The position numbers and the translations under genes were made by a program. From positions 43,798 through 93,545 of the forward strand of contig CAZKZP010000001.1 of NCBI GenBank assembly GCA_964557295.1: a stretch of DNA of 49,748 bases, given 5' to 3'. The notes below the pieces were generated by a model, which was not told where the DNA came from, made no database searches, and saw only the letters and a list, made by a program, of their open reading frames with translations. This document shows, piece after piece, positions 9,175 through 33,931 of the stretch (position 1 is its first letter; every line of letters starts with the position of its first letter). This DNA is from an uncultured Chromatiales bacterium (lineage in GTDB: Bacteria > Pseudomonadota > Gammaproteobacteria > RBG-16-57-12).

Positions 9175-9897
9175 GTGAATCCCCAAACCAACTCAGAGCC
9201 CGCTTATTGGGCGGTAATTCCCGCCGCAGGTGTGGGCAAACGCATGGGCGGTGACAAGCCCAAACAATACCTCACGCTCGCAGGCGCGCCGATCATCGAG
9301 CACACGCTGGCGCGGCTGGCCGCGCATCCCAGGATCAAGGGCATCATGGTCGCGATCGCTCCGGGGGATCCGTATTGGTCTGCGGTGCAACTGCCGGCGA
9401 ATCTTCCGGTGAAAGTGGTCTACGGCGGGCGCGAGCGTTGCAATTCGGTGCTCAATGCCTTGGAAGGCCTGCGCGGACTCGCCGCCAAGCACGATTGGGT
9501 GCTGGTGCACGATGCCGCGCGCCCCTGCGTGCGCGTGGCGGACATCGATCATCTGATCACCACGCTTGCCGAACATCCGGTCGGCGGCCTGCTCGGGTTG
9601 CCGGTAACCGATACCATGAAGCGCACAGATGCCAGCGGTACCATCCAGCAGACCGTGCCGCGCACCAATCTCTGGCGCGCGCTGACCCCGCAGATGTTCC
9701 GGTACGGGATGCTGATCCAGTCGCTGTCCGAGGCGGTGCGCGCCGAGGAACTGGTCACCGACGAGGCCGCCGCGATCGAGTGGGCCGGTTATCGTCCGCG
9801 CATGGTCGAAGGCCACGCCGACAACATCAAGATCACCCGCCCGCAGGATCTGCAACTGGCGGCGTTGTTCTTGCAGCAACAGAAGGAAGCATCCTGA
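9175..9897 (+). CDS. ispD: 2-C-methyl-D-erythritol 4-phosphate cytidylyltransferase
   Basis: [44 protein letters not shown]. Confidence 0.96.
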
Positions 9898-10367
9898 TGC
9901 GCATCGGCCACGGCTATGACGCCCACCGTTTCACACCCAACCGACCGTTGATCCTCGGCGGCGTACACATCCCGTATGAGCAGGGGATGGAGGCGCACTC
10001 CGATGGCGATGTGCTATTGCACGCCTTGTGCGATGCCTTGCTCGGCGCGGCGGGGCTTGGCGATATCGGCCGGCACTTTCCCGATACCAGCCAGGAGTTC
10101 GCCGGCATCGACAGCCGTCTGCTGTTGCGCCGGGTGGTGGCGCAATTGCACGAGCGCGGCCTGACGGTGGGCAATGCCGATCTCACCATCCTGGCGCAGG
10201 CCCCGAAGATGGCGCCGCATATCGATGCGATGCGCGCCAACATCGCCGAAGACCTTCAGGTCGATGTGAGCCGGATCAACGTCAAGGCCACCACCACGGA
10301 GCGGATGGGCTTCGTCGGCCGCAAGGAAGGTATCGCCGCCCACGCCGTGGTGCTGTTAAACGAATGA
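9897..10367 (+). CDS. ispF: 2-C-methyl-D-erythritol 2,4-cyclodiphosphate synthase
   Basis: [50 protein letters not shown] overlaps the ispD stop (TGATG). Confidence 0.96.
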
Positions 10368-11422
10368 CTCACGCCATGTCAGTAACCTTCTCCCTTGAAC
10401 TCCCTTATGCCTTCGGCAAACCCGAGGCGTCCGGAATTCTGCGCCGCACGCCGGAGGATTTTTTCGTCGAAGAAGTGCTGGGCTTCAGTCCAGAAGGCGA
10501 GGGCGAGCATGTCTGGCTGTGGATCGAGAAGCGCAACTGCAATACCGAGTGGGTGGCCGACCAACTCACGCGTCTGGCGGGCGTAGAACACGGCGCGGTG
10601 AGTTATTCCGGTCTCAAGGACCGGATTGCCGTGACCCGTCAGTGGTTTTCCGTGCATTTGCCGGGCAAGGCCGCGCCCGATTGGTCGACCCTGAACTCCG
10701 AGCAGTTCACCGTGTTGGAAGCGGTGCGCCACCGCAGCAAATTGCGGCGCGGTACCCATCGCTCCAATCGATTCGTCATCCGCATCCGTGACATTGCCGG
10801 TGATCGTGCCGCGCTCGAGGCGCGGCTGGCGCTGATCATGCGCAGCGGCGTGCCGAATTATTTCGGCGAGCAACGTTTTGGTCATCAGGGCGGCAACCTG
10901 GAGCAGGCGCGCAAGATGTTCGGCGGGTGGCGGATCAAGGATCGGCACAAACGCAGCATGTATCTTTCCGCCGCACGCTCCTATCTGTTCAATCAAGTCC
11001 TCTCGCGCCGCGTCGAACAAGGCAGCTGGGATCGGATCCTGCCCGGCGAGGCCGTCATCCTGGCTGGCAGTCATAGTTTTTTCGTCGCCGACGAGATCAA
11101 CGATGAGCTCCAGCAACGCCTTCAGCGCATGGATATTCACCCCTCGGGTCCCTTGTGGGGGCGCGGAGATTTGCCCTGCAAGGGGCAAGCGGCAGAGTTC
11201 GAACGCCGCACTGCCGCGGACTACGCGGAATTCTGTGAAGGCTTGGAGAAGGCGGATCTGCGGCAGGAGCGCCGCGCGCTTCGGTTACAGGTGAGCGACC
11301 TGGAGTGGACTTGGCCGGAGGCCACTACCCTGGAGTTGAGGTTCGGCCTAGGTCGGGGCGAATACGCGACTGCGGTAGTGCGCGAGTTGGCCGTCTGCAG
11401 TGAGGCTATGAAAAACCTCTAG
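10364..11422 (+). CDS. truD: tRNA pseudouridine(13) synthase TruD
   Basis: [46 protein letters not shown]. Confidence 0.95.
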
Positions 11423-11705: not shown

Positions 11706-12077
11706 ATGAAATTCACGAAATCAGTCTTGCTCCTGGCGCTCCTGGGCTGCTCCACAGCGCAGGCGCATGCCGATGAGTACTACACCGGCGTGATGTCCGC
11801 ACTCAAGCAGGATTACAAGGAGGCGTATGCCTTGTTAAAACCGCTGTCGGACAAGGGGGATCCTCGCGCGATCTTCAATGTGGCGCTCATGTATCACGCG
11901 GGCCTGTTCGTGGAATTCGATGAGAAAAAGGCTGTGGAACTCTATCAGGAAGCGGCAAAGCTCGGTGTCCGGGAGGCGCAACAGTTTTTAGCGGCGGGGT
12001 ATCGCGAAGGATGGTTTGGCCTGCCGATGGATTATGAGAAATACAAATACTGGATGGGGCAAATGGGCGAGCTGTGA
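11706..12077 (+). CDS. Small exported Sel1-repeat protein
   Basis: Signal peptide ending AQA/AHA. Sel1 motifs GDPRAIFNVALMYHAG, DEKKAVELYQEAAKLG and AQQFLAAGYREG. Confidence 0.8.
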   Translation: MKFTKSVLLLALLGCSTAQAHADEYYTGVMSALKQDYKEAYALLKPLSDKGDPRAIFNVALMYHAGLFVEFDEKKAVELYQEAAKLGVREAQQFLAAGYREGWFGLPMDYEKYKYWMGQMGEL

Positions 12078-12093
12078 CTCGCCGTAGGGGGTG

Positions 12094-12129
12094 GCCGATG
12101 GGTGTAGATACCCATCGGCTTTTTTGTTT
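12094..12129 (+). terminator. Intrinsic terminator
   Basis: Perfect 10-bp stem GCCGATGGGT/ACCCATCGGC followed by TTTTTTGTTT. Confidence 0.8.
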
Positions 12130-12314
12130 CATGATTCAACAATCGACAGACTCTAAAAATTCAGTCTCTCTTTCACAGACATTTCTGTAAGATCACAAGT
12201 CGAAAAATAAAAATTTAAATGTTGCCTTGGGTGCAGTCCGCCGATAAAGTTAAAATTGCCTTATTTAATAGAAAACTAATATTAACGAATAACATTCCAC
12301 AGTGTGGGTTTAGG

Positions 12315-13238
12315 GTGAATAAACGCTCGGTTTTTTGTCTGCTCGCCGCGCTTTTAATGTTGGCCCCCGTCGCCAATGGCGTTACCGAGGAATCTGGCCG
12401 CATCGCGGTACTCTACCCACTGTCGTCGGGTACGTACGAGAAAATCTTCGATGAAATCATCGAAGGCATCAGCGCTGCCTCGTCGATCGAGGTGGTGCGT
12501 TTTCCCGTGCCTGAAGCGAGCTCCAATCAGGCTTTGTCCGAGGAGTTCACGAAGAAGAATGTAAAAGGCGTAATAGCGCTAGGTCAAACCACATACGATC
12601 CGCAAGCGGCGCAAACCGTCGTGCCCGTGGTCTACGGCGGTGGCGTGATCATCCCCGGCTACCAAAACGGCATCAGCCTAATGGGCGATCCGGAATTGTT
12701 TTTCACCAAACTGAAGCGGCTTGCACCTAAAGTTAAGAGGGTATTTACCGTCTACAATGAGCAAAACAGTGGTTGGCTGATCGAACGGTCAAAACGCGCC
12801 GCGAGCAAGCGAGGCTTGGAATTGCGAGCCTATGCGGCAGAGGATTTGCGTGATGCCATGTTGAAATTCAAACTTATCTTCGATGAGGCGCGTGATTCAA
12901 GCGATGCCATTTGGCTTACGCTAGACAGTGTGATTCCCGACAAGACGGTATTGCCCTTGGTGCTGGAAGTGTCCTGGGAACGTCGCGTCGTTGTGTTCTC
13001 GAACAATCCGCTTCATACCAAGCGTGGGGCATTGTTTTCGTTGTACCCGGATAATCGGCGCATGGGCGAGAGTCTCGGGAACATGCTGTTGAGTCAATTG
13101 AAAAACCCGGCCAAAGCCGAGCTCCTGCCATTGTCTGATTTGAAGGTGGCGGTCAATGAGAGGACGGCATCGCATCTGGGCTTGAGTTTGGGTAAAGAAG
13201 ATTACCAGCAATTCGATTTGGTTTACCCGAGCAGATAA
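12315..13238 (+). CDS. Periplasmic substrate-binding protein (ABC_sub_bind / type 1 PBP-like), no permease adjacent
   Basis: GTG start at 12315 gives a signal peptide. Motifs LAPKVKRVFTVYN, SDAIWL, GALFSLYPDNRRMG and VAVNERTASHLGL. Confidence 0.72.
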   Translation: MNKRSVFCLLAALLMLAPVANGVTEESGRIAVLYPLSSGTYEKIFDEIIEGISAASSIEVVRFPVPEASSNQALSEEFTKKNVKGVIALGQTTYDPQAAQTVVPVVYGGGVIIPGYQNGISLMGDPELFFTKLKRLAPKVKRVFTVYNEQNSGWLIERSKRAASKRGLELRAYAAEDLRDAMLKFKLIFDEARDSSDAIWLTLDSVIPDKTVLPLVLEVSWERRVVVFSNNPLHTKRGALFSLYPDNRRMGESLGNMLLSQLKNPAKAELLPLSDLKVAVNERTASHLGLSLGKEDYQQFDLVYPSR

Positions 13239-13252
13239 CAATCGGCGCATGC

Positions 13253-14794
13253 GTGACTGAGGAAACCGAGGACAAAAAACTTCGCAGCTTTCGACAGCAA
13301 CTGATGCTGCTTGTCAGTATCGGTCTGTTGACAATGGCGATCGCCTCCTCGTTGAGCACCGCATATGTGACTGCCTGGAATCTCCGCGGCCAAATGATCG
13401 GTGAGGGGCTGCAAGTAACGGAGTCGCTGGCGCGGCAATCGGTGCTGGCGCTGTTGTATGACAGCGGCGACAACGCGGAGGATGCCGTGCGAGCGGCGAT
13501 GGGGTTCCCGGAGATCGAAAACGTCATGATCGTTGCGGCGGATCATCGGGTGTTGCTGAAAAAGGGTAAAAACTCTCTAGAATGGGAAGCCGAGAATTGG
13601 AGCGGCCGGACCCCCGCCATCGTGCGAGAAACTCTTAATCACTGGTATTTTATCGCCCCGGTTTATGCGGAAACACAACTGCTTTCCGAAGAGAGCAAGA
13701 TGTTCCTGCAGAACCAGCCCGAACATGAAGTACTGGGATACGTCATGGTCGGCAAACGGAAAAGCGGCTTGCACAGGGTGCAGTCCTACACCGTGCTGAA
13801 TAATCTCGGAATCACCATTGTGAGCTCGGTGCTATTGCTCTTGGTCCTGCGCCGATCATTCAGTCGCTTGACGCGCCCGTTGAACGATCTATCCGAGGTC
13901 ATGGGGCGCGCTGAAGAGGGAAAAGAGGCCTACGCCAAACTTGAAGGACCGAAGGAAGTCTTGCGTATCGCGGCGGCGTTCAACAAGATGAAGGCGGCCT
14001 TGGATGAGCGCGATCAGCAGCTGCGGCAGCATAACGTGGTGCTGGAACATCAAGTCGCGCAGCGCACCCAGGAGTTGTCATACGCGCTAGAGATGGCCGT
14101 GCAGGCGAACCGAAATAAGTCATATTTTTTATCAAGCGTCAGTCACGAGCTGCGCACCCCGCTGCAATCGATCATCGGCTATAGCGATCTTATTTTGGAC
14201 GGCCTGACAGACGGCGATGACCAGATCCGGCATGATCTCGAAACCATTCTGAGAAACGCAACCAACCTGTTGAACATGATCAATTCGATTCTCGATATGG
14301 CGAAAATCGAATCGGGAAATATGGACGTTTCCTTAAGCATGGTGAATCTACAGAATGTGGCCACTCAAGCGATAGAGACCATCAAGCCGTTGATGACGGA
14401 GAACGGTAATCAGTTGGAGACCCATCTGGTGATCGATCAACGGCAGATCTTGACAGATGAGGCCAAGGTCCGTCAGATCATGCTGAACCTGATCAGCAAT
14501 GCGACAAAATTCACTCATAAAGGTACGATCCGATTCGAGGTCGCCACGACCGGAAAAGGTGTCGAGATGATTGTGGCCGATACCGGGATCGGTATGAACG
14601 AGGAGCAACTGACGCGTATTTTCGAGCCGTTTTATCAAGCAGAAGGCGGGCTTACCCGGCGCTTTCAAGGCACTGGGCTTGGGTTGGCGATCAGCAAACA
14701 GTTCGCGCAGGCGCTGGGCGGGGATATCTGGGTAGAGAGCAAGCTTGGGGTGGGCACTCAGTTTTATGTTTCGATACCCTATGCCAAAGCCTGA
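13253..14794 (+). CDS. Membrane sensor histidine kinase (TM-periplasmic-TM-HAMP-HisKA-HATPase)
   Basis: H box FLSSVSHELRTPL, N box NLISNATKFT, DTGIGM, GTGLGLAIS. Confidence 0.93.
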   Translation: MTEETEDKKLRSFRQQLMLLVSIGLLTMAIASSLSTAYVTAWNLRGQMIGEGLQVTESLARQSVLALLYDSGDNAEDAVRAAMGFPEIENVMIVAADHRVLLKKGKNSLEWEAENWSGRTPAIVRETLNHWYFIAPVYAETQLLSEESKMFLQNQPEHEVLGYVMVGKRKSGLHRVQSYTVLNNLGITIVSSVLLLLVLRRSFSRLTRPLNDLSEVMGRAEEGKEAYAKLEGPKEVLRIAAAFNKMKAALDERDQQLRQHNVVLEHQVAQRTQELSYALEMAVQANRNKSYFLSSVSHELRTPLQSIIGYSDLILDGLTDGDDQIRHDLETILRNATNLLNMINSILDMAKIESGNMDVSLSMVNLQNVATQAIETIKPLMTENGNQLETHLVIDQRQILTDEAKVRQIMLNLISNATKFTHKGTIRFEVATTGKGVEMIVADTGIGMNEEQLTRIFEPFYQAEGGLTRRFQGTGLGLAISKQFAQALGGDIWVESKLGVGTQFYVSIPYAKA

Positions 14795-14892
14795 GGACAT
14801 TGTTGGGCGAGGTCGGCTTCGATACATCGGGATTTCGTCAGGGATAGACCATGATGCCATGAACATGGCATGAACAGTTTTCACAATTTGAA

Positions 14893-17415
14893 ATGGTACT
14901 ATCCGTGACGAATCTTAACATTCTTGTCTTCAATCTCCATGGCGCACAACGTGCTGCTGTCTGCACTGTCTTGAGGGAAGCAGGATATACCAGTCTTGTC
15001 GAGGCATCTGACAGCAGGCAAGCCATCTCCGCCCTCGTCAATAACGTTATTAATCTCGTGATCACCGACGTAGATCTGGGCGACTTGGATGGCTGGCGTT
15101 TGACGCGTTTGATTCGGTCGGGCGCGCTTTCGGTTTCTCCAGACACGCCGGTGATCATGGTCTCGACGGTCTACAGTGAACGCATTGCGGAGGCGACTTC
15201 GAAGGAATACGAGGTCAATCATTTCATGACCTTCCAAGAAGTGGACAACTTACCCGCCGTCGTCAGGGAGCACGCAGGAATCGAACAATGGCATGCACTG
15301 AAGTCGAAGCTGCTGGTGATCGAGGATTTTCACGATACGGTCAACCTGATCAAGCGGGTACTGGGCAACCGCTTCGATATCGAAGTGAGTTACAACGGTC
15401 GCGACGGCTTGGAGGCATGGAAAAAGGGGCGCCACGAGCTGGTCTTGTTGGATGTGATGCTACCCGAGATGTCCGGGCAAGAGGTGTTGAAAGAGATCCT
15501 GGCGATCAAGCCCACTCAGTCGATCGTAATGATGACAGCCCATTCCAGCCCCAAACGCGCAGGCGAGCTGATATTGGCTGGCGCCGTCGATTTTCTGCCC
15601 AAACCGTTTCGTGCCGAGCAATTGCGGCAGGTGTGCGAGATCGCCGCGCGACGCGAAGATTTTATTGTCAGCAACCGGCAATTTTCTCAGCGTCAGGCGG
15701 AGCTGTTCCATGAAAAGGAATTGGCGCAAAAGACCTTGCAGGCGATCGCCGACGGGGTGATCACCACCGATGCGCAGGGGAAGGTGGAGTATTTGAATCC
15801 CACGGCGGAACACATGACCGGCTGGTCTATCGCCGAGGTAAGGGGTTTGTATTCATCAAAAATTCTCAATGTCTATCAGGAGTCCACGTTGATAGAAATT
15901 GACGATCCCCTGGAGCAATGCTTGCGCGCCGGCGCGCCCATTCAAAATGAACGGCCGATCAGCTATCGCAATCGTGACGGGCACGAACTGAAAATTGATC
16001 ATGTGACATCGCCCATTTCCAATCAAAAAGGTGACTTGGTCGGGGCCGTCATGGTGTTTCGTGATGTTACCGAGTCGCATGAGCTTGAGTTGAAGCTTGA
16101 ATATCAGGCCAGCCATGACATGCTCACCGGCCTGACCAATCGCGCCGCGTTCGAGGAGCGACTCAAGCTGGTGCTGGAGACCAGGCTGCATCATCAGGCT
16201 GAGTACACCCTTTGTTATATCGATCTCGATCAGTTCAAGGTCATCAACGATACATGCGGGCACGGCGCCGGGGACCAGTTGTTGCAACATGTTTCAAGGG
16301 TAATGCTGCATAAGATCCGCAAGCACAGTGATACTTTGGCCCGCTTCGGCGGGGATGAATTCGTGCTCTTGCTCGAAGACTGCCCGCTGGATCAAGCCAC
16401 GCGCGTGGCTGAACAAATTTGCGAGGCCGTGCAAGAGTATCGTTTCATCTACGAAAATAAAACCTTCGTGATTGGCGCAAGCATTGGGGTCGTTCCCCTG
16501 ACCCGGGATGTGCTGACAGTGCATGATCTGCTGAGCATGGCCGACAGCGCCTGTTATATCGCCAAGGAAAAGGGAAGAGGCCGTGTCCATATCCTGCAAA
16601 CCGATGACAAGGAGCTGATCCAGCGCCGTGGTGAGATGCAGATCGTCTCAAAAATCAACGAAGCCTTTGAGTCGGGCGGTTTCTCCCTGTTTTATCAGCG
16701 CATCCAGGCGCTGGATGAAATCAATAACGTCGGCGACCACATCGAGATATTGATCAGGATGCACGACGGCAATGGCGGCTATCTCGCGCCGGGTTTTTTC
16801 CTGTCCGCCGCCGAACGTTACAATCTCTCGCCCAAGCTCGATCGCTGGGTGCTGGCCGCCACGCTGCGAACGCTCTCTGAGCACGAAGAGTATTTGTCGC
16901 GCCTCAATATCTGCGCCATCAATCTCTCCGGGCTCAGTTTTTGTGATGAGACCTTCGCGGATTTCGTCCAGCGGCAATTCGAGATCTTCGGCATCCCGCC
17001 GCGAAAGATATGTTTCGAGATCACGGAAACCGCCGCAATCGGCAACATTGCTCTGGCGAGCGAATTCATTCATCACATCAGAAGCCTGGGCTGCTCCTTC
17101 GCTCTGGATGATTTCGGCAGCGGTATGTCCTCCTTCGCTTACCTCAAGCGCCTGCCGATTGATTTCCTGAAGATCGACGGCCTGTTCGTGAAGGATATCC
17201 TGATCGATTCCTTCGATCGCGCGATGGTAAATTCCATCAACGATATCGGCCACGTGTTTGGCTTGAAAACTATCGCCGAATATGTCGAAACCCCCGCCAT
17301 CGCCGAGGAACTGCGCAAGGTCGGTATCGATTATGTGCAAGGGTATGCGATTTCCAAGCCGGAGCCGCTGGAAAAACTGCTGGCAGAGATCAAGATCAGC
17401 AGCCAGCTGACCTGA
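14893..17415 (+). CDS. Response regulator diguanylate cyclase/phosphodiesterase (REC-REC-PAS-GGDEF-EAL)
   Basis: Two receiver domains (ITDVDL; LLDVMLPEMSG...FLPKP), PAS, ARFGGDEF, EIL variant of EAL, DDFGSGMSSF. Confidence 0.9.
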   Translation: MVLSVTNLNILVFNLHGAQRAAVCTVLREAGYTSLVEASDSRQAISALVNNVINLVITDVDLGDLDGWRLTRLIRSGALSVSPDTPVIMVSTVYSERIAEATSKEYEVNHFMTFQEVDNLPAVVREHAGIEQWHALKSKLLVIEDFHDTVNLIKRVLGNRFDIEVSYNGRDGLEAWKKGRHELVLLDVMLPEMSGQEVLKEILAIKPTQSIVMMTAHSSPKRAGELILAGAVDFLPKPFRAEQLRQVCEIAARREDFIVSNRQFSQRQAELFHEKELAQKTLQAIADGVITTDAQGKVEYLNPTAEHMTGWSIAEVRGLYSSKILNVYQESTLIEIDDPLEQCLRAGAPIQNERPISYRNRDGHELKIDHVTSPISNQKGDLVGAVMVFRDVTESHELELKLEYQASHDMLTGLTNRAAFEERLKLVLETRLHHQAEYTLCYIDLDQFKVINDTCGHGAGDQLLQHVSRVMLHKIRKHSDTLARFGGDEFVLLLEDCPLDQATRVAEQICEAVQEYRFIYENKTFVIGASIGVVPLTRDVLTVHDLLSMADSACYIAKEKGRGRVHILQTDDKELIQRRGEMQIVSKINEAFESGGFSLFYQRIQALDEINNVGDHIEILIRMHDGNGGYLAPGFFLSAAERYNLSPKLDRWVLAATLRTLSEHEEYLSRLNICAINLSGLSFCDETFADFVQRQFEIFGIPPRKICFEITETAAIGNIALASEFIHHIRSLGCSFALDDFGSGMSSFAYLKRLPIDFLKIDGLFVKDILIDSFDRAMVNSINDIGHVFGLKTIAEYVETPAIAEELRKVGIDYVQGYAISKPEPLEKLLAEIKISSQLT

Positions 17416-17420
17416 CCTTG

Positions 17421-18248
17421 TTACGGAACCTCACGCGGAGGCGGCCCCTGGTAGTCGATGTCATCGCAGCGCAGCGGCAGGAAGGATTCGGCGGGTTTGT
17501 CTCTTGTGTCGACGTAACAAGCAGTAACACCACTATTTACTAAAATCGCCAAACAGCGATATACCTCTTCGGAGGTGAATCCATGGTCGGACAGAAAAGA
17601 AGACATGTAGCCATTGATGTTCATACTTTCATCAAAATTGCGCAGCAATATTTCCTCGATCTCGTATGCTAGTCTTTGATGCTTTCCGATAGGTATGCCT
17701 AGCTCTTTTTGGGTCCGTTCCATTGCGGCGATTCTTTCATCGCCTTTGGCAATGGGTCGAGCATAGCCCATTATGTGGGGTTTGCCGCCGTGGAGATCGC
17801 ATGCCTGTTTGACGATGTCATCAACTGTGACCCCACGTGAATAAGCCTCGTAGGCTCTTTGGATGAAGTGCATTCCTTCAATGATCGTCCTGGAGCCGTA
17901 TATGCGCGAGTCATTGGCCAATATTCCCGAAACAGTAGCAGCTATCACCGATGTTTGATTTGTGCCAGCAAGAGCGCCGATTTGATTGCACCAAATACGG
18001 GGATCTGGCCAACTAAGGCAGATATGGGCGGCTTCAAACCAATCAGCGATTTTTCGATCAGGGATTTTGCCGATGGCGTTCAGTATAAGCACTTGCATGT
18101 AGGAAAACTTGCCTACCAAATCGTCCAACATCGAATAGCCGTGGTTGAATACCCCTTTTCCAATAATCCAGCCGCCTTTGCTGCTGCGAATGCGCCCCCT
18201 GTTTTCATCCCAGACCGAGGTGTTGGTATGTCTAGTATTCGATGACAT
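17421..18248 (-). CDS. Citrate synthase/citryl-CoA lyase-fold protein (degenerate active site)
   Basis: HGYSMLDDLVGKFSYMQVLIL, WPDPRIW, HIMGYARPIAKGDERI and MNINGY align by eye with the citrate-synthase-like fold. Confidence 0.6.
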   Translation of the reverse strand: MSSNTRHTNTSVWDENRGRIRSSKGGWIIGKGVFNHGYSMLDDLVGKFSYMQVLILNAIGKIPDRKIADWFEAAHICLSWPDPRIWCNQIGALAGTNQTSVIAATVSGILANDSRIYGSRTIIEGMHFIQRAYEAYSRGVTVDDIVKQACDLHGGKPHIMGYARPIAKGDERIAAMERTQKELGIPIGKHQRLAYEIEEILLRNFDESMNINGYMSSFLSDHGFTSEEVYRCLAILVNSGVTACYVDTRDKPAESFLPLRCDDIDYQGPPPREVP

Positions 18249-19047
18249 AATTTTCCTCTGTGATGAAAGGCATGGCGGTGATGGGTTTGTTGCTTAGCTC
18301 TATACCATGCGCAAGCAAGCCGGGGGCGGCCATGATCTGAAATAGCCCAGTGCCCGCGCGTGGATTGAAACCAAGATCCGTAAATACGGCAGCAGCAACG
18401 CCGGTACTCAACCAACCTTGGGTGTGTTGCGCTAACGCCTCTGCCAGCCGGCATCCCCACGCCAAGCTTTTGCCAGCGCCGTTGAGTTTGGCCAACTGAG
18501 ACGCAAGTTGCCAAGAAAGGATATCGATCCCGCCAAATCGAGATCCAAAACCAGGCGCAATATGCCAATCGCCTACATTTGGCGGGTGCGAGCTCGATAA
18601 CAGGGTGTTGGCTACTTGTTGTGGATCGAGATTGCGATTTTGTCGGAAAAACCGCATTGCTGGTTCAATAGCGCCTGCGCCAAGATGCTCCCCGCCATAG
18701 ACGGTAATGGCGATTGGTAGAATGTGTGCCGGATCTGTTTTTCCGACACCAGCATTCATCGCGGCGCGTGTGGCCGGATGGCGTGGTCCTGGATTAATCA
18801 AGCCTATCATCAGCTGCTCTAAAAGTTCCGCTTCTTCATTGTTGGGCAATTCGCCGCGAAACAACAGATAGAGTACATCCACATAGCTGCGTTTTTTCAC
18901 CAGCTCCATTAAATCATAACCATGACAACGTGCAGTGGCGGTGATGTAGGGGTTGTCCGATGTGGGCACTTCTTGCCAAATACGGGAGGCTGCACGTTCA
19001 ACAAAGGTTTCGTTGCGTTTTTCGACCTTGGAGGAGGACTTGGACAT
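18232..19047 (-). CDS. Citrate synthase/citryl-CoA lyase-like protein
   Basis: HGYDLMELVKKRSYVDVLYLLFRGELP, HPATRAA, GGEHLGAG, IAPGFG, GLFQIMAAPGLLAH. Confidence 0.72.
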   Translation of the reverse strand: MSKSSSKVEKRNETFVERAASRIWQEVPTSDNPYITATARCHGYDLMELVKKRSYVDVLYLLFRGELPNNEEAELLEQLMIGLINPGPRHPATRAAMNAGVGKTDPAHILPIAITVYGGEHLGAGAIEPAMRFFRQNRNLDPQQVANTLLSSSHPPNVGDWHIAPGFGSRFGGIDILSWQLASQLAKLNGAGKSLAWGCRLAEALAQHTQGWLSTGVAAAVFTDLGFNPRAGTGLFQIMAAPGLLAHGIELSNKPITAMPFITEENYVIEY

Positions 19048-19057
19048 GACGCGGTGG

Positions 19058-21244
19058 CTATTTATTGAAATGATAGATGGCTTCGATATATACGCTGCGG
19101 CCTTCCAATGGGTAGTCTCCGGCTATTGGGCCATTGCTGGGTTCGCGGGCATCCTCGTCAAGGGCATTTCGAATGGCTGCGGCGAATTCCAACGGATTAT
19201 TGGGGATGTTATATCGTAAAATGAGGTCAACTATGGTGTAGTCTTTGATGTCTTCTCGTGTATCACTCGCGGCTCTTTTGCGTGCTGCCACCCAGTTGAA
19301 GCGTGGATTTAAACTCCAGTTAGGTTTGAATTTCCAGCGTGCGCCCACGGAGAGTTGATGGCCGGGTGCTGCGGCGACCGTTTCGTTTGTGTCAGCATTT
19401 TCTGATTTTTGCCAAGCAACATTGCCAAGTATCTGTAGCGTTTTGCTTAGTTTCCAGTTTGCCTCGGCTTCAAAACCATAACCTCGCTGATCCTTGGCAT
19501 TTCTAGCCTCATTGTTGATGAAATCGATCAGATCATGGATTTGATACGTATAGATGTTGAAAATGGTTTCAAGGTCAAAATTGGGGCGATAGTCGAATGC
19601 CAGTTCTAGCATATCAATGGTTTCAGGATCTAAGTTCTCATTGCCAATGAGATATGGATTATTTTGAAAATAGAGTTCATTAAAGGCCGGAGCCCTGAAG
19701 GCCCGGCCATACAGGAGTTTGGTCGTGAGGTTGTAGTCGGTGGCCCATACCAAGGCAAGACGAGGGTTGACGGTGCTGCCAAAGTCTGAGTAATTATCGT
19801 AGCGTACGCCGCCCGTCAGCTCCCAATCGGCAGCAAATTTCCATTCGTCCTGCAGGGAGAGGTAATACAAGGTTCTTGATTTGTCAGGCATGAATACGTT
19901 GGCCGTGTCTGTTACGTCGGTCAAGGTGCCGTCAATGGGGGTCACTGAGCCATCGATGACGCCAGGGCCAAAGTTCTTCGACTCGCGTGTTTGTACCGAG
20001 TCATGCTCTGTGCCCAGCGCGATGCGCATGTGATGTTTGGCCCAGCCATCGTAGGTAAGGGCGGCCTCAAAAGAGGTTTCCACCAAGTCCCCTCCGGGAT
20101 TCCCCAGCAGCCCATCAGTGAAGGTTACCATGCAGGTTGGTACGCAGGAAAAATTGATATTTCCATCGCTTCCGATGGGGATGGTGGTGCCTGGGGGCAA
20201 TAATTGGAAGAAGGCATCCTGGTTCATTTCACGATAAACTAAATGGCTGTCAACTTTCCAATTCTTAGAGAAATTGTTGTCGATATAGGAGAGCTTGGCG
20301 ATGTAATGATCCACTTCTTGATGGCCAACTGTGTCGAGCGCCTGAGCGCCACCTGGACCAAGTCCGCTATCGCGGAGATTCCAGCTGTTGAACCATAACT
20401 TCCAATTACCCCGACTAATATCCAGGGAGGTATTGAAGACTTCATATTGGGTTTGAAGCGGGCCTGGCGCCAAACTGGCATTGGTGCCAAAGAAGGTATC
20501 GAAGGTTGTCTGTTGGTCGGAGTTGACGATGCGGCCAGCATCGCCGTCACTCTTGGCGTATTCAAGGCTAAATGCCATGTCCCAGCCGCTATATTGGGCA
20601 CCATGCTGGATCCACGCATCTTTGGTATCAAAGGATCCGGCGCGGACCCCCAATATTGTGCCATCGATATCGGTTACTTCTTTGGTGATGACGTTGATCA
20701 CGCCCGCAAAGGCATCTGCGCCATAAACCGCTGATCCGGGACCTCGGATGACCTCGATTCTGGATATGTTTGCGACAGGGAGCCTGAATAACGGTGGGCG
20801 GCCACCGGTTGCGTTATCTCGGATGGGCTGGCCATTGATTAACAGCAAGACTTGCGGATTTTCTCCGGAGTGTATGCCGCGGATGGAGTAAAACGCATTA
20901 AGGCGGTTGAACGATCTAGCGACATGCAAACCAGGGACAAACTCCAGTGCTTCGTCCAGGCTGGTCGCCCCCATGGCCTTGATATCCTCCGCCGTGATGA
21001 CGCTGGCTACAGACGGTGCAAGGTGGATAGGCTTGCGTGTGCCGGTGGCGATGCTGATGATTTCTTCATCTTCATAGAGCAGCATCAAAGCATCTTCACC
21101 GCTTGATTCAGCCTTGAGATAAGCGGGGGTGAGGGCTATGCATATTATCAATGAAGAATACGCGGCCTTGACACGCATCTGGGGGTACCTCGTTATTTTG
21201 GCATAGGGTGCACGGTTCGAGATCCTTCCCTTCTTTTCAGCCAT
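19058..21244 (-). CDS. TonB-dependent receptor (BtuB/CirA-like)
   Basis: Plug domain (APSVASVITAEDI, RIEVIRGPGSAVYGADAFAGVINVITK) and barrel strands (GGVRYDNYSDFG, YGRAFRAP, GRSVYIEAIYHF). The true start may be a downstream Met. Confidence 0.93.
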   Translation of the reverse strand: MAEKKGRISNRAPYAKITRYPQMRVKAAYSSLIICIALTPAYLKAESSGEDALMLLYEDEEIISIATGTRKPIHLAPSVASVITAEDIKAMGATSLDEALEFVPGLHVARSFNRLNAFYSIRGIHSGENPQVLLLINGQPIRDNATGGRPPLFRLPVANISRIEVIRGPGSAVYGADAFAGVINVITKEVTDIDGTILGVRAGSFDTKDAWIQHGAQYSGWDMAFSLEYAKSDGDAGRIVNSDQQTTFDTFFGTNASLAPGPLQTQYEVFNTSLDISRGNWKLWFNSWNLRDSGLGPGGAQALDTVGHQEVDHYIAKLSYIDNNFSKNWKVDSHLVYREMNQDAFFQLLPPGTTIPIGSDGNINFSCVPTCMVTFTDGLLGNPGGDLVETSFEAALTYDGWAKHHMRIALGTEHDSVQTRESKNFGPGVIDGSVTPIDGTLTDVTDTANVFMPDKSRTLYYLSLQDEWKFAADWELTGGVRYDNYSDFGSTVNPRLALVWATDYNLTTKLLYGRAFRAPAFNELYFQNNPYLIGNENLDPETIDMLELAFDYRPNFDLETIFNIYTYQIHDLIDFINNEARNAKDQRGYGFEAEANWKLSKTLQILGNVAWQKSENADTNETVAAAPGHQLSVGARWKFKPNWSLNPRFNWVAARKRAASDTREDIKDYTIVDLILRYNIPNNPLEFAAAIRNALDEDAREPSNGPIAGDYPLEGRSVYIEAIYHFNK

Positions 21245-21268
21245 GGGGCTCTAGTAATCAGAGGTTCA

Positions 21269-21481
21269 TTAGCCCAAATTTAAGTCGTAATCATTCATGG
21301 CAGCTATTTTAATGGACTTGAGTATTCCCTCGATGTCCTGCAGTTTTTCATCATATTTCAACTGTTGATCTTCATCAGTAGACATGGAAGACAGTTTCTC
21401 GAGCCTTTCCTCATAATGTTTCAAGGCTTCCCATAAAATGTGATATTCATTGACGATAGGCTGTATACCTTTAGCCGGCAT
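21269..21481 (-). CDS. Small acidic helical protein, probable Tsi2-like immunity/antitoxin
   Basis: 70 aa, predicted two amphipathic helices. Its start overlaps the end of the Tse2-like ORF. Confidence 0.5.
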   Translation of the reverse strand: MPAKGIQPIVNEYHILWEALKHYEERLEKLSSMSTDEDQQLKYDEKLQDIEGILKSIKIAAMNDYDLNLG

Positions 21482-21896
21482 TTGCTAACTCCAGGGTTGT
21501 CACTAGTTGAACCTTGGATCGATCCAATCCCAATTCCTCGAGAATGCCAAGATACTTTTTTAGTGGCATATTCTTCGAGGGAGCGATCATATAATGCCCT
21601 TCATGGCCGGGACGCTTATCCTTAACGAGTTTCAACTCCTCTGGCAAAGGGACACCTTTCTTGATTCTCCACACCTTTTTTCCTGGTTTACGCATTACCT
21701 TCGTAATGTGGTCAAACGCCGAAAAACCGTTGCCGTTAGCTATGACGGTATCGATACCCTCTTTCCTGGTGATAACCACATCGACTTTTGCCCTGTCTTC
21801 CGTAAAAGCAGGCCATGTCGTATTACCCATCCGGTACAGATCCTTGGTGAACTCGCCGACATCCATAATGTAAAGAACCTCTGGGGCGATCATCAT
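21471..21896 (-). CDS. Tse2-like ADP-ribosyltransferase-fold toxin
   Basis: LYR...GFSAFD...IKKGVPLPEELKLVKD...HYMIAPSKNM parallels P. aeruginosa Tse2 as I recall it (LYR, GTSVFD, IPDGTDIPPDLKVKQD, HYTIMPAKPM). GGAG RBS upstream. Confidence 0.7.
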   Translation of the reverse strand: MMIAPEVLYIMDVGEFTKDLYRMGNTTWPAFTEDRAKVDVVITRKEGIDTVIANGNGFSAFDHITKVMRKPGKKVWRIKKGVPLPEELKLVKDKRPGHEGHYMIAPSKNMPLKKYLGILEELGLDRSKVQLVTTLELANAG

Positions 21897-21966
21897 TGTT
21901 TCTCCTTGGTGTGTGAAAGCTCATGGTTAACATAATAATTATTTATGGAATGAATGCACGCATTTT

Positions 21967-23811
21967 TTACTGTCTTAGTTGGCTCAAGGTTTTTACCCGC
22001 GCGCCGATCAGTGGGATTTCTTCGGAATCGATAATCACGTCCAGCAGTGTGGGTCCCGTGCTGTGGCAGATCTTTTCGATGTCAAGCCGGGCAAGGTCCT
22101 CCGGGCTGCGGATGGCATAGGCATTCGCGCCCATGGCCCGCGCCATTTGGGCAAAGTCCACCGCCGGTAATGAATAGCCAATCGGTTCGGCGCCCGTCAT
22201 GCGTTGGGCGTGTTTAATCATTCCGAATGCTTGGTCATTGAGGACGACGTAGATCACTGGGAGATGTTCGGCCACGGCCACGGTGATTTCCTGTCCGCTC
22301 ATGAGAAAACAGCCGTCACCCGTGATGCAGACAACAGGTTTGTGATTGCATCCGAGCGCTATGCCAACGGCGGCGCCGATAGCCCAGCCCATGGCGCCAA
22401 AACTCAAACTGATATTTTGCTTTCCTGTGCCGTCCAGCATGAGATAGTGCGTGCACCATGACCAGGCATTGCCGGTATCGACGAGGAAGCTGGTGTTTTT
22501 CGGAAAGCGTTCGCCCAATTCACGTATGACACGCTGGGGCTTGAGCGGGACGCTGTCCGAATAACACTTGTCTTTATCGCTGACGGTGATGGTTTCGGGA
22601 AAGTAATCGGCGTTGGTTCGCGCCGAAGGACGATATTCGGGAAGGTCATCATAGGGCCGCTTGTCGATATTGGCTTCAAGGATGTCCCGGTGCAGGTGGG
22701 TGAAGAGGGTGCGCAGGTCGCCCAACACATGCAGGCACGCCATGGGCGAACGGGCAAAATCGTCTGCAGTTGCCGAGACGTGCACCAGTTTATTGTTCAG
22801 CAGTGAGGTGTCCCACCCGCTGGTGGAAAGTTCACCCAAGGCCGTACCCACGGCGAGAATCAAATCGACCTGGTCATTGTTAACGGTCTCGAAGGCGCTT
22901 TTGTGCCCGGCGAAACCGAACACGCCGCGATACAGCGGGTGATAGGTGTTAACCCAGCTCTTGCCGGTGGGGGTGGTCACGAACGGCGCTTGCATGTGCT
23001 CGGCAAAGGCCAGGATCGGTGTGATGGCATGGCGGCTGCCTCCCCCCAGGAACAGAATCGGATTCCTTGCGTTGAGGATGGCCTCTTTCAACGCCTCATA
23101 AGCGGATTGGTCGATGTTCTGTGGTTGCCGGAAGAGATGCGCCACCTGATACCCCTGGCTGAGGTTGGCGACCGGCATGTTCAGGATGTCCATCGGGATG
23201 CTCAGATGGACCGGTCCGCGTGGCTGGCGGAAGGCGTGCATCAAGGCGGTGTAGAGTTTCCCTTCTAGTTGGTTGGGATGTGAGACCAGGGAGTTATAGC
23301 GCGTGCAGTGCTCGAACATGCCGACGGTATCGATGGCTTCGCTGGAGGATTCCTGCAATCCCATCTTACCGAAACTCGGCAGCGCGGTTTGCGGTGTGAT
23401 GACCAGCATGGGGATGCGATCGACATACGCCGAGGCCACGCCGGTGATCAGATTGGTGGCGCCGGGGCCGGTGGTGGCGCAGCACACGCCCAGCTTGCCG
23501 GTCTCGCGTGCGTAACCGTCAGCCATGAAGGCGGCGCCGGCCTCATGGCGGGCGATGATCGGTCTGACATAGTGCCCGGTGCGCCGTTGCCGCAACGGAA
23601 TGATGCTTTTATTGACGAGTGGTCGCATCAGTTCGTCGACCGGCTGGCGCAGGTGCCGGCCGATGGCGTTGTACAGAGGCTCGATGGCGCCGCCCGGGAT
23701 TCCGAAGATGTATTCGACGTCGATCTGCGCCAGGTAGCGGATGATCAAGTCTGAATAGGTGAACACTGGTGCCGGGGCGTGTGATGGGAGCGACTGATCT
23801 TGGGTTGTCAT
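21967..23811 (-). CDS. Thiamine diphosphate-dependent enzyme (acetolactate synthase/acyloin synthase-like)
   Basis: FGIPGG, ARHEAGAAFMADGYAR, TTGPGATN, and ThDP motif GDGCFLM...VLND. No ilvH/ilvC nearby. Confidence 0.88.
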   Translation of the reverse strand: MTTQDQSLPSHAPAPVFTYSDLIIRYLAQIDVEYIFGIPGGAIEPLYNAIGRHLRQPVDELMRPLVNKSIIPLRQRRTGHYVRPIIARHEAGAAFMADGYARETGKLGVCCATTGPGATNLITGVASAYVDRIPMLVITPQTALPSFGKMGLQESSSEAIDTVGMFEHCTRYNSLVSHPNQLEGKLYTALMHAFRQPRGPVHLSIPMDILNMPVANLSQGYQVAHLFRQPQNIDQSAYEALKEAILNARNPILFLGGGSRHAITPILAFAEHMQAPFVTTPTGKSWVNTYHPLYRGVFGFAGHKSAFETVNNDQVDLILAVGTALGELSTSGWDTSLLNNKLVHVSATADDFARSPMACLHVLGDLRTLFTHLHRDILEANIDKRPYDDLPEYRPSARTNADYFPETITVSDKDKCYSDSVPLKPQRVIRELGERFPKNTSFLVDTGNAWSWCTHYLMLDGTGKQNISLSFGAMGWAIGAAVGIALGCNHKPVVCITGDGCFLMSGQEITVAVAEHLPVIYVVLNDQAFGMIKHAQRMTGAEPIGYSLPAVDFAQMARAMGANAYAIRSPEDLARLDIEKICHSTGPTLLDVIIDSEEIPLIGARVKTLSQLRQ

Positions 23812-24045: not shown

Positions 24046-24600
24046 TCACATTTTTGAATTTATAGATGGCTGGCGCTGTATCCACACATAAACCGCGCCA
24101 TTGCCGCCGTCTTGCGGGCGGGCGGAGCAAAAGGCCACCACTCGGCGCTGTTGCTGGAGCCATTGGTAGACCAGGTTCTTCAGCACGGGTTGCGTGCCTT
24201 GGGAGCGATAGCCTTTGCCATGGATGATCAGCAGGCAGCGCCTGGCCTGGGCCGAGGCGAGGGTGAGGAATTCCTGCAATGACGCGAGCGCCTCGGTGGT
24301 GGTCTGGCCATGGAGGTCGAGCCGCGCCTCGATGGTGACTTCCCCGCGCTTGAGTTTACGCAGCTGTTTTTGCGGCATCCCGCCGCGATGGAAGAAGACG
24401 TTGTCCTCCGGGGCGATCTGGATATCGATATCCAGCCCGTGGGCCGGCGGGGTATATTGAGGCTGGGACGGGCGGCGCGGCGCGGGACGCCGGTGGACCA
24501 CGCGCGTGTGGGTGACCGGCGCGACATCGCCGACCGTGCTGCGAAATAATTCGCGCTCATCGGCGGAGACATCTGTAGGTTTCTGAGGCTTTTTTCCCAT
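24046..24600 (-). CDS. Smr/MutS2-domain endonuclease (SmrA/SmrB-like)
   Basis: LDLHG, LIIHGKG, DGGNGAVYV. Confidence 0.92.
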   Translation of the reverse strand: MGKKPQKPTDVSADERELFRSTVGDVAPVTHTRVVHRRPAPRRPSQPQYTPPAHGLDIDIQIAPEDNVFFHRGGMPQKQLRKLKRGEVTIEARLDLHGQTTTEALASLQEFLTLASAQARRCLLIIHGKGYRSQGTQPVLKNLVYQWLQQQRRVVAFCSARPQDGGNGAVYVWIQRQPSINSKM

Positions 24601-24677
24601 ATCTATTCTAAGTCACGCCGGATCATTGTAATCTACGCAGATTGTTGTCCCAAGGTTTTTAGTGGTACTGCGAACGC

Positions 24678-25433
24678 GTGAAGATTCTAATCAGTAACGA
24701 TGACGGGGTGCAGGCGCCGGGCATCAAGGCGCTGACCCGGGCCTTGTCCCGCTTCGGCCAGGTGTGCGTGGTGGCGCCGGACCGTGACCGCAGTGGCGCC
24801 AGCAATTCCCTGACCCTCGATGGCCCGCTGCGGGTGACCAAGATCGAGGAGAATATCTACAGCATCAATGGCACGCCGACCGATTGCGTGCATCTGGCCT
24901 TGACCGGCCTGCTCGATTACGAGCCCGACATCGTGGTCTCCGGCGTGAATGCCGGGGCGAACATGGGGGACGATACGATCTATTCGGGCACGGTGGCCGC
25001 CGCGATGGAAGGGCGCTTCCTCGGCTTTCCCGCCATCGCCGTCTCGCTGGTCGGGCATCCGGCCACGCATTACACCACCGCCTGCGAGATGCTCTGCCGG
25101 CTGGTCGGGCATCTCGGCAGCCATCCGCTGCCGGGCAACACCATCCTCAATGTGAATGTGCCGGACGTGCCGCTTGAACAGGTCGCGGGCTTTCAGGTCA
25201 CGCGCCTCGGCCAGCGCCACCGCGCCGAGCCGGTGGTGAAATCCATAGACCCGCGCGGGCGGGAGATCTTCTGGATCGGTCCCGCCGGGCCGGAGCAGGA
25301 TGCCGGCGACGGCACCGACTTTTTCGCGGTTAAAAATAATTACGTGTCGGTGACGCCCTTGCAGATCGATCTGACCCGGCATGCGATGCTCAATGATTTG
25401 CGCCAATGGGTGGGGCGGCTCGGGCATGATTAA
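24678..25433 (+). CDS. surE: 5'/3'-nucleotidase SurE
   Basis: [34 protein letters not shown]. Confidence 0.97.
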
Positions 25434-30677: not shown

Positions 30678-30698
30678 TTCGACTCAAAAGGATCCTTT

Positions 30699-31148
30699 AT
30701 GTATCAACAACTCTTGGAAAAGGTGGCAACTGAGAAACTGCAATTCGGCCGGGCCATGCAACCGCCCGCCTCTGAGGCAGAAATCGAAGCATTAGTTCTC
30801 AAGTCACGCACGCGACTTGGGGCAGAATTGCCGGCTGACTATTTGGATTTTTTAAGGCGAACTAATGGCTATAGTTGGAATGGATTAGGTATTTTCGCAA
30901 CGCATGAAATGCAAATTGTTGGCTCCACCGATAAGTTTGTGCATGATTTCACCGAAATGAACTTATATTATCGAGATAACTCGGATTACAAAAATCGTTT
31001 GGTCTTTGGTGACGGCAACATGGATGTTTATGTATATGAGATTGCTGATAAACAGTATGCGATTGTTGATCGAGTTCCTGGCAATGTTATTGAAAGATTA
31101 TCCTCATTTGATGAGTTGATTTCCAGAGCGATTGAGGATCATTTGTGA
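30699..31148 (+). CDS. SMI1/KNR4 (SUKH, YrhA-like) immunity protein
   Basis: PPASEAEIEAL, LPADYLDFLRRTNG, LVFGD, SSFDELI. Directly after the HNH toxin. Confidence 0.87.
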   Translation: MYQQLLEKVATEKLQFGRAMQPPASEAEIEALVLKSRTRLGAELPADYLDFLRRTNGYSWNGLGIFATHEMQIVGSTDKFVHDFTEMNLYYRDNSDYKNRLVFGDGNMDVYVYEIADKQYAIVDRVPGNVIERLSSFDELISRAIEDHL

Positions 31149-32881: not shown

Positions 32882-32905
32882 CCAAAACACAATCAAGGAT
32901 CGATC

Positions 32906-33928: not shown

Positions 33929-33931
33929 GAA

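Follow-up and report, generated by a model that had tools for sequence, protein, structure and literature searches.

A recurrent gene module in a Chromatiales bacterium that may make, recapture and sense a small molecule with a cyclic di-GMP output

Introduction

In LuxP–LuxQ and TorT–TorS an orphan periplasmic binding protein adjoins a membrane kinase and no transporter accompanies the pair, and in NspS–MbaA and YfiBNR the output is cyclic di-GMP (c-di-GMP). Both features are found in a locus at positions 11706..23811 of the DNA analysed here (the window, a stretch of 49,748 nucleotides of contig CAZKZP010000001.1, assembly GCA_964557295.1, from an uncultured Chromatiales bacterium). Its plus-strand arm encodes a substrate-binding protein (SBP), a histidine kinase and a c-di-GMP regulator, and its minus-strand arm encodes a thiamine diphosphate (ThDP) enzyme, a TonB-dependent receptor and two proteins with the citrate-synthase fold, which we call CSa and CSb. 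Unlike in LuxPQ, TorTS, NspS–MbaA and YfiRN, the SBP belongs to family PF04392. Compared with LuxPQ- and NspS-type systems, the signal would reach the GGDEF-EAL domains through a separate regulator with two REC domains, and sensing is tied to a TonB receptor and to enzymes. YfiR–YfiN offers a further parallel, in that a YfiR-like DUF4154 protein fills the sensor slot in other clades of the module.

The enzymes and the receptor also have relatives in described systems. ScyA and NzsH are ThDP-dependent acyloin or β-keto-acid synthases of secondary metabolism. Together with BbmA and CsmA, they share with the enzyme encoded here a three-domain architecture like that of acetolactate synthase (ALS) and the lack of a regulatory subunit and, as in ScyA- and NzsH-type systems, the ThDP gene stands alone amid genes unrelated to branched-chain amino acids. 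The partners differ, with a CS-fold pair and a TonB receptor here in place of the ScyB/ScyC-type genes. CSa and CSb have the fold and the length of about 270 amino acids in common with citryl-CoA lyase (PDB entry 6hxp), the citryl-CoA lyase module of ATP-citrate lyase and the citrate synthases. TonB-dependent import likewise lies upstream of a periplasmic or envelope sensor in SusC/D systems with hybrid two-component sensors, in FecA/FpvA and in the pyoverdine locus. The locus lacks the STN domain, anti-sigma factor and extracytoplasmic function sigma factor of FecA/FpvA signalling, the glycoside hydrolases of Bacteroides SusC/D and the nonribosomal peptide synthetase (NRPS) or NRPS-independent siderophore (NIS) synthetase that would be expected from the pyoverdine comparison. 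Its output is a second messenger, whereas in those TonB-coupled systems it is transcription of the locus.

We tentatively read the locus as one copy of a conserved system that makes, recaptures and senses a small molecule and reports it through c-di-GMP, an interpretation that we place a little short of even chances. No description of the module was found in the literature searched, and it is widely conserved and apparently undescribed.

Recurrence of the gene families

A search anchored on CSb, using a single peptide pattern, found 226 relatives in 185,579 species genomes, which is a lower bound. The locus counts rest on the best 80 of these 226, with tblastn bit-score and coverage thresholds that we set ourselves; the 43 loci flanked by 7 kb or more on each side are referred to as full, and taxa are given as named in the database records. 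Across all 80 CSb loci the receptor is present in 71, the ThDP gene in 57, a periplasmic sensor in 48 and the regulator in 46. For the full loci the corresponding numbers are 43 for the receptor, which adjoins the CS pair in every one of them (43/43), 34 for the ThDP gene, 34 for the sensor (SBP or DUF4154) and 29 for a response regulator with GGDEF and EAL domains. Receptor, ThDP enzyme, sensor and regulator are all present in 25 of the 43, and neither sensor nor regulator in nine. Gene order and strand vary between clades.

When metagenomes were searched with the ThDP gene as the anchor, 27 loci had a ThDP gene of 41% identity or more; CSa or CSb was found at 18 of them, and eight of the nine such loci without CS genes end within 1.5 kb on at least one side. 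A CS-like gene was found at none of the 53 metagenome loci with ALS-like genes of at most 37% identity. These counts, together with the 25 complete full loci, show that the linkage of the gene families is recurrent and beyond chance, and the prospect raised in the preliminary description of this DNA, that the families might show no conserved co-occurrence, is not borne out.

Strong CSb matches are present in seven of 41 genomes (that of the window and 40 relatives). In two of the seven, which are from other families (G037 and G040, 31–35% identity), the ThDP, CSb, CSa, receptor, SBP and kinase genes lie together in differing orders, and G040 additionally holds a REC-GGDEF-EAL regulator. Unrelated lineages, among them Cellvibrionaceae, Rhodocyclales, Desulfuromonadaceae, Chromatiales and Neptuniibacter, have the genes for sensor, kinase and regulator mixed in with those for the enzymes and receptor, and the module as a whole ranges over Gamma- and Betaproteobacteria, Desulfuromonadaceae, Geobacter, Desulfobulbaceae including cable bacteria, Myxococcota and Nitrospirae. 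The Cellvibrio loci have the sensor kinase gene in the same orientation as the receptor, CSb and CSa genes, and the ThDP gene in the same orientation as the regulator gene.

A short-chain dehydrogenase/reductase (SDR) gene lies within the module in 19 of 83 sources. Other neighbours encode an aldolase-SDR fusion, a sulfotransferase, a carbamoyltransferase, an Asn-synthase-like amidotransferase and a hexapeptide transferase, joined in further clades by a methyltransferase and a cytochrome P450. Since other clades add such tailoring-type genes, the module looks biosynthetic rather than catabolic. A NitT/TauT-type ATP-binding cassette (ABC) importer was considered as the missing transporter and rejected, as it is confined to 5–7 loci of a single clade, Cellvibrio; there its genes (NMT1_2 binding protein, permease and ATPase) lie directly upstream of the ThDP gene and are co-directional with it (L055:16436-19944, L023, L034 and L038). 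As a separate observation, the module in G037 and G040 (L013:11440-16579 and L014:1108-4940) abuts chemotaxis-type genes, for a methyl-accepting chemotaxis protein, CheB, CheD, CheR, CheW and a REC-SpoIIE phosphatase.

The ThDP enzyme

The ThDP enzyme (21967..23811, minus strand) contains all three of the Pfam domains TPP_enzyme_N, TPP_enzyme_M and TPP_enzyme_C, making it a member of the ALS-like decarboxylase/carboligase superfamily. His89-Glu90, Gly498-Asp499-Gly500 and Asn525, which comprise the cofactor-activating Glu and the GDG...N metal motif, are invariant in 37 ThDP sequences. Against the biosynthetic ALS model TIGR00118 the protein scores 291.6 bits in hmmscan and 273.7 bits in the genome search (cut-off 538.35), and it stays under all NCBIfam cut-offs. 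A true ALS of 892 bits is encoded on another contig of the same genome. Because the score is far under the cut-off and a true ALS is found elsewhere in the genome, the enzyme is not an ordinary ALS, a possibility that had been named as one that would refute the initial interpretation. No ilvN/ilvH or ilvC open reading frame (ORF) lies in the 11.7–24 kb region or among the conserved neighbours in 83 loci. Its sequence thus places the protein as an ALS-like carboligase of a distinct clade rather than the housekeeping ALS.

The best matches among solved chains are BbmA (PDB entry 8x3x, 279 bits) and CsmA (PDB entry 8x3z, 255 bits), compared with 186 bits for Escherichia coli ALS I and 105–116 bits for 2-hydroxyacyl-CoA lyase (HACL), oxalyl-CoA decarboxylase and benzaldehyde lyase. 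We did not find BbmA, CsmA or their PDB codes described as enzymes in the literature searched, and a search of PMC12247030 for these terms gave no occurrence. The ScyA-related NCBIfam models match the ThDP enzyme at 215–243 bits, far short of their cut-offs of 1000 and 1020. The genome also encodes a third ALS-like ThDP paralogue (G000:C29:31053-32642, locus L096), which scores 430 bits against the ALS model and is likewise under the cut-off.

The citrate-synthase-fold pair

CSa (17421..18248) and CSb (18232..19047) are encoded on the minus strand by genes that overlap by 17 bp. Their profiles match Hydrogenobacter thermophilus citryl-CoA lyase (6hxp) with E values of 1e-16 for CSa and 2e-24 for CSb, and both are classed as fold homologues of citrate synthase/citryl-CoA lyase. 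The NCBIfam citryl-CoA-lyase models match the pair at 57 and 86 bits, well under cut-offs of 212–245. In the ESM Atlas, CSa retrieves only clusters auto-named 'putative citrate synthase'.

The motifs DHG, GYGHR and NVDG of 6hxp are those that we take, by their roles in citrate synthase, to provide the catalytic His/His/Asp. In the alignment of CSa, GYGHR becomes GYARP (His to Arg164), NVDG becomes NING (Asp to Asn212) and DHG becomes DPR; in CSb, PGYGHR becomes PGFGSR (His to Ser169), NVDG becomes LSTG and DHG becomes NPG. The invariant residues of CSa across 64 sequences are Arg164, Glu171, Arg172 and Arg272, with no invariant His, and across 65 sequences of CSb no His is invariant, His90 and His247 being nearly so. 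In difference from 6hxp, both catalytic His and the Asp are replaced and are not conserved across these 64 CSa and 65 CSb sequences. What CSa does keep, as in 6hxp, are two arginines, Arg172 in the DPR motif and the C-terminal Arg272. Judged by these alignments, both CSa and CSb lack the catalytic His/His/Asp residues and, because these are lost, citrate-synthase chemistry should not be assumed. The earlier designation of the two genes as a citrate-synthase-like pair therefore holds for the fold and should not be extended to the chemistry.

Unlike citryl-CoA lyase and citrate synthase, CSa and CSb form an obligate paralogous pair that is at times fused. The two genes adjoin wherever the DNA continues in 80 related loci, and six longer homologues were found, of which three have the size of CSb plus CSa and three are CSa-SDR fusions. 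In the loci examined, and again unlike citryl-CoA lyase, the pair never lies beside citryl-CoA synthetase genes. Co-folding of CSa with CSb gave a median score of 0.32 (runs at 0.60, 0.32 and 0.07; best control 0.02), with a partner pLDDT of at least 87 and a contact agreement across runs of 0%. In calibration 116 of 157 solved complexes and two of 215 mismatched pairs reached the mark; just 18 of the 157 did so at 0.60 or below, where both passing mismatches also lie. The pass may also reflect likeness, as citrate-synthase dimers are among the solved structures. The adjacency and the fusions are evidence that CSa and CSb function as a unit within an enzyme pathway, to which the models add weak support.

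A Nannocystis locus (L079:1-8898) holds at least seven tandem CS-like genes, of CSa and CSb type, around one ThDP gene, so that the pair is expanded there. An apparent 'ThDP-CSb fusion' of 758 amino acids in L094 was discarded as a frame artefact, the ORF lying in the CSb frame and not in the ThDP frame.

The TonB-dependent receptor

The receptor gene (19058..21244, minus strand) encodes a PF07715 plug (90.6 bits) and a PF00593 barrel (148 bits), as in TonB-dependent outer-membrane receptors with a plug and a 22-strand barrel. The true start is probably Met23, ahead of a signal peptide. The protein reaches no NCBIfam subfamily cut-off; its best matches there, which are weak, are haem, siderophore and B12 receptors, and its best PDB matches, to CirA, BtuB and FepA, are limited to the plug.

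The periplasmic sensor, kinase and regulator

The SBP (12219..13238, plus strand) matches Pfam PF04392 (ABC_sub_bind) at 41 bits. Its relatives align from about residue 36–41 and the copy in the congener (G001) has stop codons upstream of that point; the true start is probably the GTG at 12315, ahead of a signal peptide. Relatives in the PDB are 3lft, 3lkv and 6hni. The protein is an orphan, lying beside a kinase and with no permease or ATPase in the block, and the SBP–kinase–c-di-GMP arrangement originally proposed is thus confirmed. All five family genomes examined retain the SBP–kinase pair, always with the kinase after the SBP.

The kinase (13253..14794, plus strand) consists of a periplasmic region followed by HAMP, HisKA and HATPase domains (Pfam). 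Its H-box reads FLSSVSHELRTP and it is not a hybrid kinase. It matches the LuxQ_Vibrio model at 193.5 bits (cut-off 1200) and TorS at 221.6 bits (cut-off 676.5), in both cases over the catalytic core only, and belongs to neither equivalog family.

The regulator (14893..17415, plus strand) has the domain order REC-REC-PAS-GGDEF-EAL (Pfam), with 142 and 200 bits for the GGDEF and EAL domains. All of the motifs looked for in its translation (GGDEF, EIL..R, N, EITE, DDFGSG, KIDG, E and QGY) are intact, and it is predicted on this basis to be the c-di-GMP output, with both GGDEF and EAL catalytic motifs preserved. Full-length orthologues occur in 46 of 80 related loci. In the Rhodocyclales locus L089, HAMP, HisKA, HATPase, Hpt, REC, GGDEF and EAL domains are fused in one protein of 1493 amino acids, which ties the kinase to the c-di-GMP output.

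Two kinds of sensor fill this slot across the clades, a PF04392 SBP accompanied by a kinase and a YfiR-like DUF4154 protein. The latter is free-standing or, in 26 loci, mostly of Cellvibrio, fused to a hybrid kinase. Profile comparison of PF04392 with DUF4154 gives a probability of 6.8%, and homology between the two is therefore not demonstrable.

Divergence and history of the locus

The genome of the window (G000) was compared with that of its congener (G001) and with other genomes of the family, including G003–G006. The order ispDF-truD-SBP-kinase-regulator is kept in G001, G003, G005 and G006. At the other end, the ThDP gene lies beside smr in 6/6 family genomes checked, with synteny on the smr/surE side in G001, G003, G004, G005 and G006. 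The unit receptor-CSb-CSa follows the ThDP gene in G000, G001 and G003 and is located elsewhere in G005 and G006; in G004 the unit was not found. Since both arms hold the same anchors in relatives, the 12 kb block is not one island. Both arms are ancestral in this family, at truD and at smr/surE, and only the segment with the receptor, CS and toxin-like genes is discordant, in identity and in GC3.

Composition gives a similarly uneven picture. In 1 kb windows the GC content is 0.45–0.55 over 12–22 kb, compared with 0.60–0.65 in the flanks, so that the described low-GC block of about 12 kb is real, but the drop differs from gene to gene in both GC and GC at third codon positions (GC3), and with the arms being ancestral a single acquired island is not supported. 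The ThDP gene has a near-native composition (GC 0.585, GC3 0.725; genome GC 0.601), the SBP, kinase and regulator genes are intermediate (GC3 0.61–0.68), and the CS pair, the receptor and the toxin-like pair have the lowest GC3 in the block (0.45–0.57). For the receptor, CSa and CSb it is 0.52–0.57 versus 0.67–0.83 in most neighbours, the exceptions being the SBP (0.61) and nlpD (0.58).

Identity between G000 and G001 falls along the same lines. It amounts to 96% for surE, 91% for pcm, 87% for the regulator, 86% for the kinase, 83% for the ThDP enzyme and 73% for the SBP, and to 63% for CSb, 57% for the receptor and 52% for CSa. The latter three are no closer to their G001 counterparts than to those of other genera. 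In a quick FastTree analysis the window receptor falls in a supported set of five rows that excludes the G001 receptor; the window CSa is nearest to a row from G006 and the G001 CSa pairs with L039, with CSb showing no resolved placement. The receptor-CS cassette would thus appear to have been replaced in this lineage, with an unsampled relative of lower GC as the donor.

The receptor and the CS pair diverge faster than the ThDP enzyme and the regulator. Among five Cellvibrio loci the ThDP enzymes are 82–92% identical to each other, compared with 61–66% for the receptors in nine of ten pairs. Over 783 locus pairs the Spearman correlation with the receptor is 0.69 for each of CSa and CSb, and that with the ThDP enzyme is 0.52 and 0.41, respectively. 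This co-divergence is suggestive of a matched specificity. It resembles the situation in pyoverdine loci, where the receptor and neighbouring enzymes diverge faster between close relatives than the rest of the locus.

A possible make, recapture and sense system

Our data show the identities of the genes, the loss of the triad, linkage from either anchor, the gene fusions and the faster divergence of the receptor and CS pair. The scheme that follows goes further and is what we infer for the locus: its chemistry, the secretion and re-import of a product, the binding of a ligand by the sensor, the sign of any change in c-di-GMP and any quorum-like behaviour. In the cytoplasm, the ThDP carboligase would join two 2-oxo-acid or aldehyde units to give an acyloin or an α-hydroxy-β-keto acid. 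A CSa/CSb heterodimer, with its triad replaced and its carboxylate-binding arginines kept, would process this intermediate and set the type of product, which in other clades may be tailored by an SDR, a methyl-, sulfo- or carbamoyltransferase, a P450 or an amidotransferase. The product would leave the cell and be recaptured across the outer membrane by the cognate TonB-dependent receptor. In the periplasm it would be bound by the orphan binding protein, here the PF04392 SBP and elsewhere the YfiR-like DUF4154 domain, which would modulate the histidine kinase. Phosphorylation of the REC-REC-PAS-GGDEF-EAL regulator by the kinase would then change the level of c-di-GMP. The make-and-sense interpretation given in the preliminary description is supported in part by our results: the gene linkage, the non-ALS nature of the ThDP enzyme and the orphan SBP stand, and the inclusion of the toxin pair, an assumed CS chemistry and a single acquired island do not.

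A narrower version is more doubtful, and we consider it unlikely to be correct in full. Here, the locus would be a system for type-specific signalling or for a public good, gated by TonB and of a new chemical class, in which a secreted acyloin-derived molecule would be made by the ThDP carboligase together with the rewired CSa/CSb heterodimer. The fast-diverging CS pair would set the structural type, the co-diverging receptor would read it, and recapture into the periplasm would be converted into c-di-GMP by the PF04392 or YfiR-like orphan binding protein.

A number of observations weigh against a make, recapture and sense system. The CS pair may be no enzyme at all. In G004, which is 99% complete, the CS pair was not found with either query while the ThDP enzyme and the SBP are kept, so that parts of the module can exist apart. 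Similarly, the ThDP gene is missing within 7–10 kb in nine of the 43 full loci, and L130 has an orthologous ThDP gene with no other member in the 10 kb on each side. As the arms are anchored separately in the family, their adjacency in the window is in itself no evidence of coupling. Many of the loci are kin, chiefly from Cellvibrio, and the counts therefore show recurrence rather than independent trials. Co-divergence of receptor and CS pair is not proof of matched specificity, because neighbouring genes are transferred together whatever they do, and fast divergence of TonB receptors has other causes, for example phage and colicin pressure. Neither an exporter nor an inner-membrane importer is conserved among the module neighbours, and the sequencing runs listed include no RNA run holding the locus.

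Alternative explanations

The same genes could instead serve to import, sense and degrade an exogenous compound, which we think unlikely although several features point that way. The receptor would import the compound into the periplasm, the SBP or DUF4154 protein would report it to c-di-GMP, and once an unlinked inner-membrane carrier had taken it up the CS pair and the ThDP enzyme would degrade it, a logic that resembles that of a Bacteroides polysaccharide-utilisation locus with a hybrid two-component sensor. The invariable core of the module is receptor-CSb-CSa, usually as one co-directional unit (43/43 full loci), as is typical of uptake and catabolic operons, and the ThDP gene is attached more loosely (34/43). 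A receptor and first-step enzymes that co-vary, with a later step that stays constant, would fit a variable external substrate equally well, and an exporter is conserved nowhere among the neighbours. ThDP enzymes also cleave acyloins and 2-hydroxyacyl compounds; however, the nearest solved relatives of this one are not lyases, with HACL, oxalyl-CoA decarboxylase and benzaldehyde lyase at 105–116 bits compared with 279 bits for BbmA. An ABC importer does lie upstream of the ThDP gene in some Cellvibrio loci, yet it is restricted to the 5–7 loci mentioned above and an inner-membrane importer is not conserved either. Methyl-, sulfo- and carbamoyltransferases, an Asn-synthase-like protein and a P450 would be unusual neighbours for a catabolic pathway, and the output is c-di-GMP, with no transcription factor for the operon.

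Still less probable is a metallophore locus, in which the enzymes would make a hydroxy-carboxylate or acyloin chelator, the receptor would import its metal complex and the sensor would adjust lifestyle to metal supply. TonB receptors mostly import metal chelates, and the weak best matches of this receptor are of that kind (haem, siderophore and B12 receptors, and the CirA, BtuB and FepA plugs). An α-hydroxy acid product would be a plausible metal ligand, and the co-diversification of receptor and enzymes recalls pyoverdine loci. Against this, no Fur-box-like site rises above the window background: a consensus scan of the intergenic spacers gave at best 13/19, in a 70 bp spacer with 33% GC, and the background reaches 13–14 matches in eight of 248 windows. 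No riboswitch was found either, an Rfam scan of 11–25 kb returning a single chance-level match (E 0.32). NIS and NRPS synthetases, a reductase, a permease and an ATPase are all absent from the block and from the conserved neighbours, the SBP lacks a partner transporter, and regulation ends in c-di-GMP.

That two independent arms merely abut in an ancestral truD...surE interval is already disfavoured and very improbable: each arm does have its own anchor in the family, the arms lie on different contigs in G001 and the receptor/CS unit has moved elsewhere in G005 and G006, but distant lineages interleave sensor, kinase and regulator genes with those for the enzymes and receptor in several orders, all classes are found in 25/43 full loci, and generic ALS-like loci lack a CS-like gene (0/53).

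Significance

As a secreted small-molecule system with a cognate receptor and sensor, the module would be of a known kind, put together from unprecedented parts. If the narrower, type-specific version is true, it would be the first case of a ThDP enzyme acting as a signal synthase, of a citrate-synthase fold serving in catalysis or as a scaffold without its triad and of a TonB receptor gating a quorum- or kin-type signal; if the receptor and CS pair define specificity types, it would also provide a new model for diversifying social traits. The module bears on what many orphan ALS-like ThDP enzymes make, on the role of the citrate-synthase fold after loss of the catalytic triad and on the signals that feed many orphan c-di-GMP regulators. 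The hypothesis is directly testable, since cultured carriers exist, namely Cellvibrio mixtus J3-8 (L055) and Denitromonas iodatirespirans IR-12 (L094).

Layout of the window and accessory genes

Genes were called from an ORF listing with translations and from Pfam and NCBIfam scans of the window proteins. All previously described gene positions and identities agree with these calls, as do the 5 bp gap between the arms (the plus arm stops at 17415 and the minus-arm stop starts at 17421) and the absence of an ABC permease or ATPase and of ilvH/ilvC from the block (ORF listing and Pfam). The outer flanks hold ispF and truD (9375..11422, plus strand) on one side and smr (minus strand) and surE (plus strand; together 24046..25433), followed by pcm and nlpD, on the other. 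The assignments of ispF/truD and of smr and surE are from Pfam and NCBIfam, and the two flanks are the conserved anchors of the SBP–kinase–regulator side and of the ThDP side, respectively. Contigs from sequencing runs X1 and X3 span the stretch with identical pieces. For X6, bins 17414-20418 are almost uncovered between covered adjoining bins and are bridged by no contig, which we do not take as evidence.

Between the ThDP and receptor genes lie an ORF of 141 amino acids (21471..21896) and one of 70 amino acids (21269..21481), both on the minus strand and overlapping by 11 bp in a toxin/immunity-like layout. The larger ORF matches PF18648 (Tse2 ADP-ribosyltransferase toxin) at 44.6 bits (cut-off 26.6), over profile positions 65–132 of 137 and thus in the C-terminal half only, and has no PDB relative; the smaller one has no family match. 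Their GC content, 0.39–0.47, is the lowest in the block. In the 86 related loci used for comparison tblastn finds no match to the pair, and G001 has just about 110 bp at its position, which is the junction where identity to G001 drops. The pair, with a candidate Tse2-like toxin and a downstream partner, has been inserted locally between the ThDP and receptor genes and is not a member of the module.

At the other end of the block, a small Sel1-repeat protein (11706..12077, plus strand; Pfam Sel1 38 bits) has a signal-peptide-like N-terminus and a weak MotX-like match. The G001 copy lies at the same position and is 91% identical, and no match with at least 40% coverage was found in 80 related loci; we regard the protein as a local accessory rather than a conserved member of the module.

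The first 120 or so residues of the longest truD ORF (10028-11422, plus strand) are rich in Arg and Pro and overlap ispF in another frame; as family matches begin near residue 123, translation probably starts further in. A second low-GC stretch (0.46–0.53) is found outside the locus at window positions 30000-37000.

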